Shown piece by piece: positions 3,839 to 26,427 of a stretch of DNA of 64,000 nt. The DNA is from an uncultured Candidatus Saccharibacteria bacterium. Its GTDB lineage: Bacteria; Patescibacteriota; Minisyncoccia; Phycocordibacterales; UBA918. The stretch is taken from contig CAYOAM010000003.1 in NCBI GenBank assembly GCA_964402035.1, positions 86,480-150,479 on the forward strand. Reading direction: 5' to 3'. Each line of letters begins with the position of its first letter. The stretch's first letter is position 1. The notes below the pieces were generated by a model. It saw only the letters and a program-made list of their open reading frames with translations. It did not search any database and was not told the DNA's origin. The position numbers and the translations under genes were made by a program.

Positions 3839-4909
3839 TTACAGGAGTCGTTTTAGTGACTTTGGGTTGACCGAGTACGCAAAAGCATTTTCAACGGTAA
3901 TCTCGCCTTTGTGTACCAATTCTGCCAATGAGCGATTCATCTCGATCATGCCGTGCTCAGAGCCAGTCTCAATGACAGTATTGACCTCGTGAGTACGTCG
4001 CTCGCGAATGAGGTTTGCGACCGCACTGTTGTTGATCAAAAGCTCGTACGCAGGGATAAGCCCACCCGCAATGCGGGGCACAAGACGTTGTGAGAAGATA
4101 CCCAAAAGTGAACCTGCGAGCTGGACACGGATCTGGTCCTGCTGACCTGCAGGGAATGAGTCGATAATACGATCAATGGTTTGTGCGGCGCTGTTGGTGT
4201 GGAGTGTTGAAAGGACCAGGTGCCCTGTTTCAGCAGCAGTCACAGCAGTCCCAATAGTCTCAGGAGAGCGCATTTCTCCCACCATAATGACGTCGACGTC
4301 TTGGCGAAACGCCGAATGGAGCGCTGCATGAAAATCGACCGTATCGACACGTACTTCACGCTGGTCGATGAGTGAGCGTTTTGGCTCAAAAATGTACTCG
4401 ATCGGATCTTCGATGGTGACAATATGTTCTGCCTTGGAGCTATTGATAATATCGACCATCGCCGCAAGTGTCGTCGATTTGCCTTGTCCCACTGGACCCA
4501 CACAGAGAAAGAACCCTTGTGGACGCGCAGCAAAACTCTCGAGGATCGGCGGCAGTGCAAGCTCAGTCAACGTGCGGATCTTGTTCGGGATATGACGAAG
4601 AGCGACCGATACGCCGCCACGCTGGAAAAAACCATTGCCACGAAAACGAACACCATCGCGATATGCATATGAAAAATCGACTTCTTTGGTTGCCAAGAAA
4701 TCTTTCATCTGCTCCTCATTGAGAAAAACCTCAACAAAGCCCATAGCATCCGCTTCGGTCAAGACTGGTTTTTTGAGAAGCGGAATCAATGACCCCGAGA
4801 CACGGATCATAGGATGACTCCCGACTGAAAGGTGCAAGTCAGAACCACCTTCAGACACGACAATGTCAATTAGTTCATCACGCTCCCCTTTGTAATCAAC
4901 GCTCGACAT
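3839..4909 (-). CDS. pilT: Twitching-motility retraction ATPase
   Basis: 356 aa, Walker A GPVGQGKSTT, Asp box and His box. Short PilT-type protein without the GspE N-terminal domain. Confidence 0.9.
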   Translation of the reverse strand: MSSVDYKGERDELIDIVVSEGGSDLHLSVGSHPMIRVSGSLIPLLKKPVLTEADAMGFVEVFLNEEQMKDFLATKEVDFSYAYRDGVRFRGNGFFQRGGVSVALRHIPNKIRTLTELALPPILESFAARPQGFFLCVGPVGQGKSTTLAAMVDIINSSKAEHIVTIEDPIEYIFEPKRSLIDQREVRVDTVDFHAALHSAFRQDVDVIMVGEMRSPETIGTAVTAAETGHLVLSTLHTNSAAQTIDRIIDSFPAGQQDQIRVQLAGSLLGIFSQRLVPRIAGGLIPAYELLINNSAVANLIRERRTHEVNTVIETGSEHGMIEMNRSLAELVHKGEITVENAFAYSVNPKSLKRLL

Positions 4910-10131: not shown

Positions 10132-10755
10132 GTGTATGAGACTATGTTTCGGCATTTTTTCACACTAGTGCTCGATAGTATCTTTCCGCCATCAAAGATG
10201 GAGCTCCTGGTACGCCACGCAACACAAGAGCAGCTCCATGCACATGCACTACAAAATAGCGTCTTTGAGACACGGACGATTTTTGAATATCGTGATCCGC
10301 TGGTCCGTGCACTTATTTGGCAGACGAAATATAGTGACAACATGAGCGCTGCAACGCTTCTTGGCAACGCGCTCCGCGAAGAACTACTGACGTCAATAAC
10401 GACACCGTACGTGGTGATCCCGATGCCACTCTCATCGCAGCGGCTACGGGAACGAGGTTACAATCAGACAGAACGGATTGCTGAGATTGCTGTGCTCGAT
10501 CTCCCATTTCTCACCTATGAACCATCGGTCCTTGTTCGAAAGAATACTGAATCGACGCAGACAAAATTAACGAAAAAGCAACGTGAAGAAAACATTGCCG
10601 GTGCATTTTATGTGAAAAATACCGAAATCCTCAAAAAGAAGAAGGTGATTTTGATCGACGATGTGGTGACGACTGGCGCCACGCTGCGAGAAGCCGCCCG
10701 CGCGCTAAAGCGCGCTGGCGCAAAGTCCGTCCTCTGTGTCGCTCTCGCCCACTAG
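10132..10755 (+). CDS. comFC: ComF-family phosphoribosyltransferase-domain competence protein
   Basis: C-terminal PRTase motif VILIDDVVTTGATLREAARALKRAGAKSV. Divergent from pilM. Confidence 0.8.
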   Translation: MYETMFRHFFTLVLDSIFPPSKMELLVRHATQEQLHAHALQNSVFETRTIFEYRDPLVRALIWQTKYSDNMSAATLLGNALREELLTSITTPYVVIPMPLSSQRLRERGYNQTERIAEIAVLDLPFLTYEPSVLVRKNTESTQTKLTKKQREENIAGAFYVKNTEILKKKKVILIDDVVTTGATLREAARALKRAGAKSVLCVALAH

Positions 10756-10799
10756 GCATCTTTCAAAAACCTATGCTATTCTAGGCGAATACAAATTTT

Positions 10800-10814
10800 G
10801 GAGACGTGGCTGAG
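10800..10814 (+). repeat. Duplicate of the first 15 nt of tRNA-Ser (GGAGACGTGGCTGAG), 103 nt upstream of the intact gene
   Basis: Exact 15/15 match to positions 10918-10932, followed by a long imperfect hairpin (GTGGCTGAG...CTCAGCCAC). Confidence 0.6.
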
Positions 10815-10917
10815 CTGGGTGAGAAAGAAATAATCTTCTTTCGAACCGACACATCGTGTCGGACCACTCAGCCACGGAACCGCGCAAGCGGGCTTCATTT
10901 GAACAAAGTGAATATAT

Positions 10918-11005
10918 GGAGACGTGGCTGAGTGGTCGAAAGCACCTCACTGCTAACGAGGCAGGGCCGAAACGCCCTCGACGGTTCGAATCCGTCCGTC
11001 TCCGC
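10918..11005 (+). tRNA. tRNA-Ser (anticodon GCU)
   Basis: Acceptor GGAGACG/CGTCTCC, anticodon loop CUGCUAA, 18-nt variable arm with AGGGC/GCCCT stem, T-arm GACGG-TTCGAAT-CCGTC, discriminator G. One A:C mismatch at 31:39. No CCA encoded. Confidence 0.8.
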
Positions 11006-11054
11006 AACTGTTTTGAAAAGCACCACTTGCGGGTGTTTTTTGAAACAGGAGGAT

Positions 11055-11086
11055 GGGATTCGAAGCTGTTGCGAGATATTTTGGGA
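11055..11086 (+). repeat. Copy 1 of a 32-nt direct repeat (GGGATTCGAAGCTGTTGCGAGATATTTTGGGAG)
   Basis: Repeated at 11280-11309 with 3 mismatches. Confidence 0.5.
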
Positions 11087-11129
11087 GTGAAACGAACAGA
11101 ATATCGACAACGGGTACTGAACGTGTCAA

Positions 11130-11153
11130 CGTTCGAATCCGTCCGTCTCCGCA
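11130..11153 (+). repeat. Duplicate of the tRNA-Ser 3' end (T-arm plus acceptor), 125 nt downstream of the gene
   Basis: CGTTCGAATCCGTCCGTCTCCGCA matches 10983-11006 at 23 of 24 positions. Confidence 0.6.
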
Positions 11154-11177
11154 AATAACGAAGTGAGCGAAGGAGAC

Positions 11178-11309
11178 CAAACAGTCTGGGCTGAACATGC
11201 TGGGAGCATGTTCAGGACCTTGCGAGGTATCTTTAGAAAAGTACCCGCAAGGTGTACTGCTTCTGTCAGAAGACTGTTTGGGATTCGAAACTGTTGCCAG
11301 ATATTTTGG
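11178..11309 (+). ncRNA. Candidate structured RNA or repeat module, unclassified
   Basis: Long-range helix AAACAGTCT...AGACTGTTT encloses two stem-loops (CTGAACATGC-TGGGA-GCATGTTCAG and CCTTGCG...CGCAAGG). It is followed by repeat copy 2 and the 16-bp palindrome TCCGCCAGCTGGCGGA. No protein-coding signal. Confidence 0.3.
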
Positions 11310-11433
11310 AAGCCATAGTCCGCCAGCTGGCGGAGAACAAAAATAGCTGCAACGGATACTGAAACGGTACGTTTTAGTATCGCACTCTCCGCGAAAACTT
11401 GAGCGAATCACCTTTATAGATATGCTAATATAA

Positions 11434-12063
11434 ATGTGTCTTAATCACCTCACCTACACTATGCTTACTCAAAAAAGAAATGCGGCGATCGTGGCTATCA
11501 GTTGTGTTATTGGCGTTGCTACCGCACTTTTCTTTTATTTTGAAAAAGCCGAAGCGCCAGCCATTGTCACTGACGTACCAGGAGCGGAGACAATAAACCA
11601 AGAGACCAAGGAAACTGCCACCACGACCGACAACAATCAAACAACCACACCAACCGAGACTAAAGGTGTCGAGCCTACAACACCTAAAACAACTAGTGCC
11701 ACATCAAAACCAGTGGCCAAACCGGCACCCGCTCCGACATCGAAAGTTGTATATAGCGCTGTGGTTAGCTATACGGATAAAGGATTCAAACCGTTTCGCG
11801 TCACGATAGAACCCGGCCAGACAGTACGATTTCTCAATCAATCGAGTCGCGAGATGTGGGTTGCTTCTAATATTCACCCCACACACTCCAACTACCTGAT
11901 TAAAGGCTCCAACGACTGTCTTGGGAGCAGCTTTGATCAGTGCAAGGCCGTCGGCAAAGGCGAATACTGGGACTTCAAATTTGATCCCGTCGGCTCTTGG
12001 GATTTCCACAATCACATGCGACCGACCGACGATGGTACTATCTACGTTGTGAAGCCTCGTTAA
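11434..12063 (+). CDS. Membrane-anchored protein with Thr/Pro-rich linker and C-terminal cupredoxin-like domain
   Basis: N-terminal TM helix, TTTPTETKGVEPTTPKTTSATSKP linker, then FKPFRVTIEPGQTVRFLNQSS...IHPTHS...DFHNHM, which resembles EfeO-type cupredoxin domains. Confidence 0.5.
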   Translation: MCLNHLTYTMLTQKRNAAIVAISCVIGVATALFFYFEKAEAPAIVTDVPGAETINQETKETATTTDNNQTTTPTETKGVEPTTPKTTSATSKPVAKPAPAPTSKVVYSAVVSYTDKGFKPFRVTIEPGQTVRFLNQSSREMWVASNIHPTHSNYLIKGSNDCLGSSFDQCKAVGKGEYWDFKFDPVGSWDFHNHMRPTDDGTIYVVKPR

Positions 12064-16878: not shown

Positions 16879-16952
16879 CCGTCCTTAGCTCAGTTGGTTA
16901 GAGCATTCCGCTTATACCGGAAGGGTCCCTGGTTCGAGTCCAGGAGGACGGA
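16879..16952 (+). tRNA. tRNA-Ile with anticodon UAU (decodes AUA)
   Basis: Acceptor CCGTCCT/AGGACGG, D-arm GCTC-AGTTGGTTA-GAGC, anticodon stem TTCCG/CGGAA with loop CTTATAC (U33, anticodon TAT, A37), T-arm CCTGG-TTCGAGT-CCAGG, discriminator A. Confidence 0.75.
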
Positions 16953-16961
16953 CAAGATCAG

Positions 16962-16996: not shown

Positions 16997-17674
16997 TTAT
17001 GTCGTCCGTCTCACCCTTATTCCTAACTCACCAAAATGTTTCAAAGCCATCAGGACATACTCCCATAGTGCTATGTCTCCGTATATTACATTGCATGTCC
17101 CGTGCCCAAAGCCATTCTTATACGTAAGACCAGATAATGTTGATGTCTTAACATATGGCTTTCTAAACTGACTCCGTGGTATACCCAAACGTTCTGACCA
17201 ATAGGATGAAACAGTCTCAATATCCATATCAGAGTACAGATGTAGTTTTATTTTTACTTTCCTTATGTCTACCTCCATTAATAACAGCCACTGTAAGAAA
17301 AAATACACAATGTCAGGATCTGTGTTTGCAATGAGGGTAGTGCCCCGCATAGATTTTGCACCCTCTCCCCAATAGAGAAATAGCCCCCCAAGAAACAATT
17401 CTCTTTTTGAAAGTATCCCAATGTCTTTTTTTGCTTTTTGATACGCTAGCGAGAGACGCGCCTCTCGCTTTCGCTGTGTGGTTATTCGATAGTTTTCAAT
17501 CCTGCGTGGATTCCAGTCCCGAACTGTACGCATCTGTTCATCAGATAGCGGCATATCGCGCAGCCACAGACTGAGTGTACTCTTGCTGACTCTCAAAATA
17601 CGTTTTATTTCGGAGTACGTTTTGCCCTCCTTGCGCAGTTTTCGAGCTTTTTCTCTATCCTGAAACCGTGCCAT
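16997..17674 (-). CDS. HTH-domain protein with possible degenerate LAGLIDADG-type homing-endonuclease fold
   Basis: N-terminal helix-turn-helix KEGKTYSEIKRILRVSKSTLSLWL, then FLGGLFLYWGEGAK (compare LAYWFMDDGG of I-SceI) with downstream spacing similar to single-motif LAGLIDADG enzymes. AT-rich, and TATACT lies 4 nt before the ATG. Confidence 0.4.
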   Translation of the reverse strand: MARFQDREKARKLRKEGKTYSEIKRILRVSKSTLSLWLRDMPLSDEQMRTVRDWNPRRIENYRITTQRKREARLSLAYQKAKKDIGILSKRELFLGGLFLYWGEGAKSMRGTTLIANTDPDIVYFFLQWLLLMEVDIRKVKIKLHLYSDMDIETVSSYWSERLGIPRSQFRKPYVKTSTLSGLTYKNGFGHGTCNVIYGDIALWEYVLMALKHFGELGIRVRRTT

Positions 17675-17860
17675 ATGTATAGTATAGAACATTAAACCGT
17701 ATATATAAATAACACTATCCACTAGTTCGATACTCAAAATAGGGCTGATTATTAACCTCGTTGATCATGCCATTACAGGTGCACCAAAATAGCATCGTCA
17801 CATTGTTTGTATTTGACACAGGCCCACTATCAAAGTACCCTTCCCGAGGAAAAGGAGAAG

Positions 17861-24988: not shown

Positions 24989-25391
24989 GGGGATGATCGG
25001 CTTAGACGGTTAGTGAGTATGTATGTGTGCAGTGTGAGAGCCTCTCGAATCTCTCTAAAAAATCGAGAAAATTCACGTGCTAAAACTGCTGTGAAATCTC
25101 CATACTTTAGCGGTATGGAGCTCGCCTACGCCTAAGCGTTTACGCTTTTCGCGTCGCGACGCGGACATGTCTGACACCCACTACGGCGTGTTCGTGTCAT
25201 ATTAGTTGGGTTATAAGGTACTACGTCGTTTCAGTGCACCTTGAATCAAAGAAACTCGGCACATAGTGATTTCGCTTACTTCAAACACTATGGACTTAAA
25301 TCTTCTTCGGAGGAATGAAAGTATCCTAGACACCGTAGATGCACATACATCCACTTCCTCGGACGGGGGTTCGACTCCTCCCATCTCCACA
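24989..25391 (+). ncRNA. ssrA: tmRNA (SsrA)
   Basis: 5' GGGGATGATCGGCTTAGACGG and 3' GGACGGGGGTTCGACTCCTCCCATCTCCACA match the tmRNA tRNA-like domain. Acceptor GGGGATG/CATCTCC has a G3:U70 pair and discriminator A. Internal frame GCT AAA ACT GCT GTG ... GAG CTC GCC TAC GCC TAA is tag-like. Directly downstream of smpB. Confidence 0.75.
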
Positions 25392-25402
25392 GATAACGCA
25401 AT

Positions 25403-25423
25403 CCGCCCTTTGGGCGGTTTTTG
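25403..25423 (+). terminator. Terminator after tmRNA
   Basis: CCGCCC-TTT-GGGCGG followed by TTTTTG. Confidence 0.6.
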
Positions 25424-25639
25424 CGTTCTGTGGAGTGGAGAAAGCAAATAGTTTTGCTTTCGTGAGGAGTCGAAAGTCGTAGCTAACTCACTTCCGCCTA
25501 TAAGCGGAAGTGAGTGCGAGACGTGGTCAAGAGCACTTAGTACACATGCGGAGCATGTTACTTAGTGACTCGTGACCGACACCGCCGTCCAAGAATCTTA
25601 GTGCAATCAAACGTAGTATTGATGTGCACTTAGAATTCT

Positions 25640-25700
25640 GGGGATCACTCCTCCCATCTCCACAAAATGAAAACCGCCTTCGGGCGGATTTTCTATTTTG
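25640..25700 (+). repeat. Degenerate duplicate of tmRNA termini plus terminator
   Basis: GGGGAT-CACTCCTCCC-ATCTCCACA: the 5' 6 nt and 3' 19 nt of ssrA are fused, then CCGCC-TTCG-GGCGG and a T-run. Confidence 0.55.
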
Positions 25701-25713
25701 GGAATATGAAAAC

Positions 25714-26427
25714 ATGCTGGGAGTATGTTTGGTGAAGTTGCAAAATAATTGTTTATATGGCATAATAATGCCCGTTTTTGTTCCAACCCAAACATTGAGG
25801 TTTGCCGTGGATATTTCATCTATCTTTAGACATGGGAGCGGCTGTACTCCCATCAACCCCTGTATATCCTGTCAGGGCGTAGCGTTCCTTAGACGTGAAC
25901 TTGGGGAAGCAAAATTCTCTGAATTCGTGAATATATTCTCGTGCGCGACAGAAGAGACTCGACCGCCAGCTGCGCCAGATTTTTCACTTGCAACATCTGT
26001 CCATGCTCTCGGACTTAAAAGGAGAACACTCAATTGTCTTGTGGGCCACGGTGTACGCACGGTCAGTGACATACTTCCTCTGTCAGCGGCGCAATTGCTG
26101 CGTATCCCCGGCATGGGCCAGGTCTCCCTAGAAGATTTGGAGATGCAGCTACAGAGTCGGGGGTTGCGTATCGTTGAATTCTCTATTCCACAAACCTCAT
26201 TGGATACAGAAATCTCGCAGCTGGATTTTGATCAGATGGCACATGGCTCAAGTGTGACACAGTACCTCAATAAATCGGGAGTAATGACCCTTGGAGATCT
26301 GCAAAGAAAGACTAGGGGGGAGCTGCTGCTAATACCTGGTATTGGCCCTGCCGCCATAAAAAAAATAGAACAAAGACTAAGGGAAAGAAACTTAAGTCTA
26401 AGGAAGTTTACGCACCAAAGACCGTAG
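25714..26427 (+). CDS. Protein with two tandem RNA polymerase alpha-subunit C-terminal-domain-like (helix-hairpin-helix) repeats
   Basis: SVHALGLKRRTLNCLVGHGVRTVSDILPLSAAQLLRIPGMGQVSLEDLEMQLQSRGL and VTQYLNKSGVMTLGDLQRKTRGELLLIPGIGPAAIKKIEQRLRERNLSL both resemble the RpoA C-terminal DNA-binding domain. Start uncertain: the ORF opens at 25624, and the first Met after the upstream terminator was chosen. Confidence 0.5.
   Translation: MLGVCLVKLQNNCLYGIIMPVFVPTQTLRFAVDISSIFRHGSGCTPINPCISCQGVAFLRRELGEAKFSEFVNIFSCATEETRPPAAPDFSLATSVHALGLKRRTLNCLVGHGVRTVSDILPLSAAQLLRIPGMGQVSLEDLEMQLQSRGLRIVEFSIPQTSLDTEISQLDFDQMAHGSSVTQYLNKSGVMTLGDLQRKTRGELLLIPGIGPAAIKKIEQRLRERNLSLRKFTHQRP

Follow-up and report, generated by a model that had tools for sequence, protein, structure and literature searches.

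Structured units that copy the ends of a tRNA gene and of tmRNA in a Patescibacteria genome

Known tRNA-linked repeats and the tRNA-Ser(GCU) locus

The tRNA-linked repeats of Escherichia coli tyrT (rtT RNA), a single locus in enterobacteria, are 178-bp tandem units that each contain the 3' end of tRNA-Tyr. REP/BIME/REPIN sequences and MITE-type elements (e.g., Correia) are small, non-coding, non-autonomous hairpin repeats that occur in many copies, lie in intergenic regions near terminators, and can be nested or decayed. In the attP site of the CTX phage, the stem of a hairpin reconstitutes the duplex recombination site. Genes for tRNAs and transfer-messenger RNA (tmRNA) are classical integration targets, with the regenerated gene and a displaced fragment marking the ends of an island (PMC4383910). 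Integron attC sites, such as the Vibrio cholerae repeats (VCRs), are imperfect palindromes of ~60–140 nt that form single-strand hairpins, are strand-asymmetric and conserved in structure, and make up arrays that bracket cassettes of open reading frames (ORFs; PMC3053210). Small RNAs (sRNAs) derive from the spacers and trailers of tRNA and rRNA operons, e.g., 3'ETS-leuZ and RNAs made between dual rrn terminators (PMC8144298). Here, we describe structured units found around a tRNA-Ser(GCU) gene and behind the tmRNA gene in a 64,000-nt stretch of an uncultured Candidatus Saccharibacteria bacterium (contig CAYOAM010000003.1, positions 86,480–150,479), hereafter called the window; related loci and contigs carry L-numbers. 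The nearest kinds of element (tDNA att sites, attC/VCR, REP/MITE, and tyrT repeats) each share some features of the units and fail others. We tentatively read the units as non-autonomous recombination elements, and their mechanism could turn out to be new.

The source lineage belongs to the Patescibacteria (Candidate Phyla Radiation, CPR). The neighborhood comprises a type IV pilus and competence cluster, a ComF-like phosphoribosyltransferase, RecG, and malic enzyme; the ComF homologues nearest to that of the window come from Paceibacteria-like metagenome-assembled genomes (MAGs), at ≤49% identity. The tRNA-Ser(GCU) gene (10918–11005, plus strand) sits in a 678-nt gap between the end of comF (10755) and the start of a 209-aa gene of unassigned function (11434). 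It is intact and does not encode CCA; it folds as a tRNA, as the original prediction had proposed. ARAGORN calls Ser(gct), and the Rfam covariance model for tRNA (RF00005) gives 10918–11004 a score of 56.9 bits (gathering score, 29).

The predicted downstream copy of the tRNA 3' end is exact. The 24-nt sequence GTTCGAATCCGTCCGTCTCCGCAA occupies 10984–11007 and 11131–11154, one nucleotide off the positions first assigned to it, with a chance expectation of 0.00; the direct repeat runs from G53 in the T-loop to 2–3 nt past the discriminator. An intrinsic-terminator-like hairpin (11008–11048, plus strand) follows the tRNA and forms the tip of an ~80-nt palindrome (10985–11064) whose left arm is the tRNA 3' end; it emerges from the fold, and all related loci are arranged alike. 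Next comes an antisense arm on the plus strand, GGAGGATGGGATTCGAA (11048–11064), which is complementary to the acceptor 3' strand, T-stem, and T-loop and was missed at first. This arm belongs to an intact 3' unit, A (11046–11160, plus strand), delimited by alignment and matched by our covariance model R1 at 90.3 bits (E = 1e-20). Unit A continues with helix H2 (11066–11113), the junction GTACTG (11114–11119), and helix H3 (11120–11133), and ends in the tRNA 3'-end copy at 11131–11154.

A second 3' unit, B (11172–11401, plus strand), is decayed and carries hairpin insertions; it was recognized from repeats and alignment, and R1 scores its 11271–11401 portion at 74.2 bits. Its arms are an antisense acceptor, GGAGAC (11172–11177), and an antisense T-arm (11279–11289), and its core consists of H2 (11291–11355), ATACTG (11356–11361), and H3 (11362–11374). 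A degenerate third copy of the tRNA 3' end, also overlooked initially, lies at ~11375–11395 on the plus strand, near 11386; 123 and 231 nt separate the 3' repeats. The direct repeat described earlier as 32 nt long is real but measures 34 nt (11054–11087 and 11279–11312, 91% identical). The proposed helix-closed pair of stem-loops is borne out, with a closing helix of 11177–11187 and 11271–11281 around hairpins 11191–11215 and ~11217–11253 (z = -5.8). This plus-strand module (11177–11281) contains AACATGCTGGGAGCATGTT, a motif that recurs in the window only at 25711. It splits the antisense acceptor of unit B from the antisense T-arm and occupies the slot of an optional GGG-loop hairpin, homologues of which are present in L094, L100, L109, and L117. 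The 16-bp palindrome TCCGCCAGCTGGCGGA is indeed present at 11319–11334; alignments identify it as an apical extension of H2 on the plus strand, inserted relative to unit A. All repeats of the original list exist, with minor shifts of position, and chance explains none of them. Folds of segments of the nest reach z-scores of -5.3 to -5.8 versus shuffled controls, with a weaker value for unit B (z = -2.7).

One proposal was that the nest consists of tandem, decayed copies of the tRNA-Ser gene. The shared termini agree with it, and nothing else does. When five flanking segments were locally aligned on both strands, similarity to the tRNA was confined to the 15–24-nt termini and the rest stayed at shuffled background, and no second match to the tRNA model besides tRNA-Ser itself was found in the region at E ≤ 10. 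The intervening sequence is instead a conserved non-tRNA core. We consider this proposal refuted and assign it next to no probability.

For the 400 bp downstream of the tRNA, no credible ORF had been predicted; over the region, 10953–11411 (minus strand), 10771–11154 (minus), and 10856–11158 (plus) all lack a Pfam match. Gene callers annotate the first of these as a 152-aa ORF overlapping the tRNA (in L001 and L002); its translation is not protein-like, and we judge the call spurious. The repeats are not peculiar to one assembly: two independent ENA assemblies carry the identical sequence. Two Logan assemblies are identical to the window from 11193 onward and both break in a hairpin loop, contigs L003 and L004 beginning exactly in the loop of hairpin 11191–11215. 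In a relative, three independent contigs (L087–L089) stop ~30 nt past comF. Hairpin-rich nests appear to break short-read assemblies.

A family of units with a conserved core

A terminus-repeat scan was run on loci fetched via ComF relatives, and sense and antisense copies of termini are also present at the tRNA-Ser genes of other Patescibacteria, L041 and L085. A search of genome contigs with a pattern from the ComF alignment proved too general and returned mostly other phyla; the matches listed included L005, L012, L015, and L041. The 20-nt pattern GGATTCGAARCTGTTGCSAG, which starts the 34-nt repeat, identified 30 metagenome loci, ~24 of them genuine; a search of IMG/VR viral contigs with the same pattern gave no match. 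The model R1 was built from 22 units and searched in ~300 kb. It gave 59 matches, with units A and B as the only ones in the window. The tRNA-linked matches lie 33–80 nt downstream of tRNAs for Ser (gct, gga, act, tga), Arg, Trp, Val, Tyr, and Leu, on the same strand. Weaker, non-ascertained matches keep this arrangement, ~55–80 nt downstream on the same strand of tRNAs that include Val(tac), Arg(tct), Arg(gcg), Tyr(gta), Leu(caa), Ser, Arg(tcg), and Trp.

All 3' units share one order of parts. The tRNA is followed by its trailer, an intrinsic terminator, and the antisense of trailer and acceptor 3' strand; next come an optional GGG-triloop hairpin and the antisense T-stem and T-loop, which end in GGATTCGAA. 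The core comprises H2 (GCUGUUGC...GCAACGG, whose apical hairpin varies), the junction RUACUG, H3 (5 bp, capped by a GUA triloop), and a further conserved junction, UCGAAR. It is followed by the direct tRNA copy, from G53 of the T-loop to 2–3 nt past the discriminator, after which trailer and terminator are often repeated, giving rise to tandem arrays. Units measure 88–270 nt. The arms match the T-stem and acceptor of their own neighboring tRNA (observed 10–25; 95th percentile of the null, 8–9), while the core is constant. Antisense arms match the genomic trailer (e.g., ...GCAAA or ...ACAAA) and not CCA, a result that eliminated a retroelement primer-binding site as a candidate. After the real tRNA and after each unit copy, L093, L095, L097, L100, L106, L109, and L114 carry a conserved extension, CATCTTAGAGCTAGCACGAGAC...TTTCGTGCTAG TTTTGTTATAAT, in which we read a terminator-like hairpin and a -10-like box. 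In solo units, base pairing between this extension and a CTAGCTCGAG block upstream closes off the entire element.

The core is conserved as a structure. In an alignment of 40 matches fitted to R1, 93.7% of cells are paired, versus ≤48% with slid partners, and compensatory double changes occur in 18 of 20 pairs. Covariation scored 0.574 (controls, ≤0.114), and none of 500 shuffles reached this value; an independent RNAalifold prediction from a MAFFT alignment gave the same helices. G·U pairs outnumber A·C pairs 49 to 11 on the tRNA-sense strand, indicating that this is the strand that folds. Together, covariation and strand asymmetry argue that the recognized form is single-stranded. The loops are mostly triloops (GTA, GGG, and GAA in GCGAAGC), which are typical of DNA hairpins (GNA mini-hairpins). 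In every tRNA-linked R1 match the core is oriented like its tRNA; the reading as an invertible promoter (inverton) is therefore rejected. Two other candidates failed as well. Compared by eye, the junctions do not fit a hammerhead core (CUGANGA...GAA), since G8 and A9 are absent, and a minus-strand pseudo-tRNA would have no T-stem and runs against the G·U/A·C asymmetry, which favors the plus strand.

These properties give some support to a different explanation, in which the units are genes for structured RNAs or co-transcribed modules, expressed by terminator read-through or from an unrecognized promoter, whose closing helix copies the neighboring acceptor and T-stem. Such an RNA could be cleaved by enzymes that process tRNAs, or it could work on tRNA metabolism as a sponge or decoy or as an antisense RNA against the 3' half of the tRNA, and a unit on the 5' side could serve as a structured pre-tRNA leader. 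The H2/H3 covariation, an invariant U·G pair, the excess of G·U over A·C, the conservation of the unpaired RUACUG, UCGAAR, and GUA loop, and the constant orientation relative to the tRNA in tRNA-linked matches all agree with it. So do loci at which every tRNA carries a unit (3/3 in L098, 2/2 in L113, 2/2 in L116) and copies that are followed by a terminator-like hairpin of their own (L107, L090, L093). However, each unit is set apart from the tRNA by a U-tract intrinsic terminator, and the plus strand of 10500–11700, which is that of tRNA and units, yielded no promoter-like site. For these two reasons we disfavor abundant transcription. Moreover, the closing helix includes discriminator and trailer and so leaves no free acceptor end. 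An Rfam 15 scan of 10600–11600 and 25300–25900 (E ≤ 10) brought only tRNA and tmRNA to the gathering score. The original suggestion of a small structured RNA family holds in that a conserved structured family exists; it matches no Rfam family, and its folded form may be RNA or single-stranded DNA. We rate the structured-RNA explanation, the main rival of our own reading, as rather unlikely.

We then compared the units with the systems outlined above. Like attC sites, they are imperfect palindromes on one strand with strand asymmetry, are conserved in structure more than in sequence, and occur in cassette arrays (L103, L114). The R''/R' motifs (RYYYAAC/GTTRRRY) are not visible, the arms ending in GGATTCGAA...TTCGAATCC with no fit to GTTRRRY by inspection, and no link between units and IntI or Xer was found in the loci examined. 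Units further differ from attC and CTX attP in that the stem is not a fixed site but copies the end of the adjacent tRNA, the core forms a three-way junction, and many arrays are empty. With REP and MITE elements they share the small non-coding hairpin form, a high copy number per genome, an intergenic position close to terminators, nesting, and decay; however, their outer arms are templated by the neighboring gene instead of being constant, their position and orientation to the tRNA are strict, and no RAYT or transposase was identified in the ORFs examined near units. Like the tyrT repeats, units are tandem repeats directly 3' of a tRNA that end in its 3' terminus, but the tyrT repeats lack an antisense arm and a three-way core, whereas units span many Patescibacteria tRNAs. 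Spacer and trailer sRNAs resemble units as non-coding modules 3' of a stable-RNA gene that can be expressed by terminator read-through; unlike units, they are single-copy, contain no copy or antisense of a tRNA end, and are neither repeated nor mobile. No match to rtT, ribozymes, retron msr, group II domains, or Y RNA-like families was obtained at either locus with Rfam 15. A full-text literature search returned no description of such elements, and none is mentioned in a paper on tRNA introns in Patescibacteria.

Arrays, the tmRNA unit, and the 5' side

Arrays of identical or near-identical units follow tRNA-Arg, tRNA-Trp, and tRNA-Ser; L091 has 4 × 88 nt (at tRNA-Arg), L113 2 × 137 nt, and L117 2 × 167 nt. 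Distribution is patchy even within one genome, with tRNA-Ser(act) of L092, tRNA-Arg(gcg) of L105, tRNA-Ile(tat) of L107, and tRNA-Ile(tat) of the window lacking a unit. Some arms are foreign. In L116, the trailer, terminator, and antisense arm behind tRNA-Ser(tga) are all of a tRNA-Ser(act) type; the outermost copy of the L091 array comes from a different tRNA; and the inner copies in L120 represent the tmRNA end of other lineages. The foreign arms of L116 and L120 suggest transfer of units between loci or genomes. Some units are solo, with no tRNA nearby, and face either way with respect to the neighboring genes (L086, L091). Array multiplication, patchiness, decayed copies, foreign arms, and solo copies in both orientations all speak against units as genes for structured RNAs.

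Units also mark junctions. In L103, L106, and L101, a left flank of 98–99% identity and a unit are followed by complete divergence at or after the 3' copy, and in L103 units bracket cassettes of one or two small ORFs of unassigned function. In L114, tRNA-Ser(act) with trailer, terminator, and promoter precedes an ORF and a unit, after which the same trailer, terminator, and promoter are repeated, followed by two ORFs and another unit. This order makes L114 a cassette array anchored on the tRNA.

The window's second locus is the tmRNA gene (24989–25392). Its terminal 18 nt (25374) are repeated exactly 273 nt further on, with 255 nt between the copies, and a terminator-like hairpin lies 3' of each copy. 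The second copy ends a unit with a second type of core (25427–25664, plus strand), recognized by its fold and by core modules common to L120. This unit comprises an antisense acceptor (25427–25440), an inserted hairpin (25441–25461), an antisense T-arm (25462–25474), a 165-nt structured core (25475–25639), and the exact 18-nt copy of the tmRNA end (25647–25664). The 309-nt stretch folds with -144 kcal/mol (z = -12.2). A second terminator-like hairpin and then a GGG-loop hairpin (25710–25730) occupy 25670–25730 on the plus strand, probably the start of a further, truncated unit. The hairpin AACATGCTGGGAG(C/T)ATGTT occurs in the window only in the tRNA-Ser and tmRNA nests, versus 0.01 expected.

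In L120–L123, tmRNA was located with Rfam, as ARAGORN gave none there. L120, the closest MAG, has three or more units of the tmRNA type, with core modules in common with the unit of the window; L122 has no unit after tmRNA. In L121 (2977–4647, minus strand) and L123 (1087–2769, minus strand), a gene for a large serine recombinase (Resolvase plus Zn_ribbon_recom, 556–560 aa) is convergent with tmRNA and overlaps its 3' end by 134 nt and 42 nt, respectively; it probably represents an integrated element that uses tmRNA as its site. The tmRNA 3' end is thus variably occupied among relatives, with units in L120, none in L122, and a serine recombinase in L121 and L123. Downstream of the tmRNA unit of the window, ORF 25624–26427 (plus strand) matches in Pfam only the C-terminal domain of the RNA polymerase alpha subunit (alpha-CTD) and an overlapping HHH_5; it encodes a small protein, a stand-alone alpha-CTD, whose true start probably lies well downstream of 25624.

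These data bear on whether the units are scars of ordinary tyrosine-integrase islands or prophages, left by repeated integration into tRNA and tmRNA genes and near-total deletion, so that the remnant between attL and attR is essentially the attP arm region. As in islands recognized by the Islander principle (PMC4383910), the target is the 3' end of the gene, the gene is regenerated, a displaced fragment starts in the T-loop, arrays form, and the fragment farthest out is the oldest; degeneration is likewise greatest in the most distal copy. Intact tDNA and a displaced 3' repeat are present at both loci (24 nt at 10984/11131, 18 nt at 25374/25647), and the serine recombinases abutting tmRNA show that this 3' end is an integration hot spot. 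However, window units contain neither integrase nor cargo between the repeats, none of the 26 window ORFs tested is a recombinase, and ORFs between the repeats lack a Pfam match. The antisense arm and units at 5' ends fall outside the island model, as do the 88–270-nt size and a single core serving many tRNAs, and no IMG/VR viral contig matched. The ~115-nt core is conserved as a single strand, with compensatory changes, across distant genomes and host tRNAs, which would not be expected of random deletion remnants or of double-stranded protein-binding arms. The proposed repeated integration and excision at the tRNA gene agrees with the T-loop start of the repeat, distal decay, arrays, and cassette junctions, but an ordinary island or prophage scar does not fit the units, and we hold this form to be improbable.

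The 5' end of tRNA-Ser(GCU) is copied as well. The predicted upstream copy is exact and 16 rather than 15 nt long: TGGAGACGTGGCTGAG at 10799–10814 and 10917–10932 (plus strand), i.e., tRNA positions -1 to 15. The 15-mer has two matches in 64 kb, versus 0.06 expected. The distal copy adjoins a promoter-like block, TATGCTATTCTAGGCGAAT (10772–10790, plus strand), which in L107 lies directly upstream of tRNA-Ser(GCU), and is preceded by ATGCTATTCTAG, which in L107 also directly precedes the tRNA. The promoter-like block is probably the tRNA-Ser promoter; a similar block, TATGCTAATATA (11421–11432), stands ahead of the next gene. The sequence upstream of the true tRNA start in the window is unrelated to the L107 block. 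Because the block directly adjoins the tRNA in L107 and not in the window, 10815–10916 looks like an insertion with a 16-nt duplication, and the distal copy would occupy the place of the ancestral tRNA start. L107, with no 5' unit between the shared block and the tRNA, provides an unoccupied 5' site in a relative. Within the putative insertion, 10805–10876 (plus strand) folds into a helix-closed 5' unit with two inner hairpins (-50.7 kcal/mol, z = -5.8), the closing helix being an inverted repeat of the 5' copy and its antisense. The antisense strand, GACCACTCAGCCACG (10862–10876, plus strand), which had escaped notice, copies tRNA nt 6–20 and is 100% complementary to 10923–10937. This arrangement makes up a mirror-image 5' unit (10799–10916) placed between promoter and tRNA; lying downstream of the putative promoter, it would be transcribed, a further point in favor of a structured RNA.

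Comparable 5' nests were found only at tRNA-Ser(GCU), in L085, L041/L104, and L100. L104 is a metagenome version of the L041 locus, in which a masked run of N (4517–4633) lies inside 114-nt tandem 5' units upstream of tRNA-Ser(GCU). In L005 (4627–5619) and L117 (199–750), orthologous LAGLIDADG_3 homing-endonuclease-like genes (57% identical) stand directly upstream of tRNA-Ser(GCU); the gene in L005 lies between comF and the tRNA, the position of the 5' nest in the window. Occupation of this flank by LAGLIDADG_3 genes makes it a second hot spot. Two features of other tRNA genes may be recorded here. A tRNA-Ile with anticodon UAU (gene TAT) instead of the usual lysidine-modified CAU is encoded in the window (16879–16953) and in L107 (oriented 9–82). 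Behind that of the window lie a plain terminator and just a weak, partial antisense copy of the acceptor strand, with no nest, and beside this gene a convergent 246-aa ORF (16997–17737) has a weak HTH_23 match and marginal similarity (E = 0.008) to the LAGLIDADG genes upstream of tRNA-Ser in relatives. ARAGORN also identified tRNA-Ser with anticodon ACU (gene ACT), and hence an unusual A34, in L012, L041, L092, L097, and L114, often beside tRNA-Ser(GCU).

The sense–antisense–sense order of the units could also arise with no element at all, as a by-product of fold-back or template-switch replication at the terminator hairpins of highly transcribed tRNA genes, amplified by slippage. Near-perfect palindromes centered on the terminator loop are in line with this idea, as they include non-functional trailer bases (24/24 in L091; 25 nt with one indel in L092, L097, and L104), as are nested hairpins such as module 11177–11281 and the small GGG-triloop palindromes directly 3' of tmRNA in L120 and L122. 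Fold-back replication leaves unexplained, however, a core shared across tRNAs and genomes, the presence of AACATGCTGGGAG(C/T)ATGTT at two window loci, and units that bracket cassettes, and it seems to us a poor prospect, on a par with island scars.

Proposed mechanism and significance

Our preferred reading, which covers most of the observations and is held with somewhat less than even confidence, is that the units are non-autonomous recombination elements that act at the DNA level and fold as a single strand. We favor DNA over RNA because units are amplified in tandem, patchily distributed, and in part decayed, with foreign arms and solo copies among them, because they mark cassette junctions, because a terminator lies between tRNA and unit, and because triloops predominate. 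Units may arise and multiply at the DNA level through recombination in the conserved stretch between T-loop and 3' end. A small intermediate, circular or single-stranded, would fold into a form whose stem is identical to the duplex at the end of the tRNA gene, and could insert in Campbell fashion, compare CTX-phage attP and integron attC. Insertion would regenerate the tRNA and shift the displaced 3' fragment downstream, and unequal crossing-over or further rounds of insertion may extend the arrays. Elsewhere, in other genomes, such units carry or bracket small ORF cassettes.

Several observations weigh against recombination elements. No recombinase, integrase, HUH, or transposase gene was found beside units among ~45 neighboring ORFs tested. 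A functional RNA would account just as well for the strong covariation and for the conservation of unpaired nucleotides at the junctions. At several loci with a single unit (L092, L104), the antisense arm is closer to the tRNA than the direct copy is, and simple insertion with neutral decay does not predict that the antisense arm should be the better kept of the two. The arms pair through discriminator and trailer, and the identity block in the window is just 18–25 nt, which is short for RecA-dependent recombination. Finally, we know of no precedent for 5' units in tRNA-targeting integration. A different outcome, which we consider rather unlikely, is that the units are a new class of 'target-templated' mobile element or an RNA- or DNA-guided system, in which an enzyme would read the core and the arms would be rewritten for each tRNA or tmRNA end colonized, or else RNAs that mimic tRNA ends in tRNA processing.

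Whichever explanation applies, the units appear to break assemblies and give rise to spurious ORF calls, and tools that search for tRNA fragments could mistake them for att sites of islands. Patescibacteria genomes are tiny and streamlined, yet in some lineages many tRNA genes are followed by one to four units each. If they are RNAs, the units would represent a new RNA class, one in which the neighboring tRNA's acceptor and T-arm are copied. If they are target-templated elements, they would amount to programmable, tRNA-anchored cassette capture in Patescibacteria, analogous to integrons and mechanistically distinct from them. If they are recombination sites, they would make up a tRNA-anchored system of gene-cassette exchange, with no integrase found nearby, that would help to account for strain-level variation and gene flow in a phylum not yet genetically manipulable.

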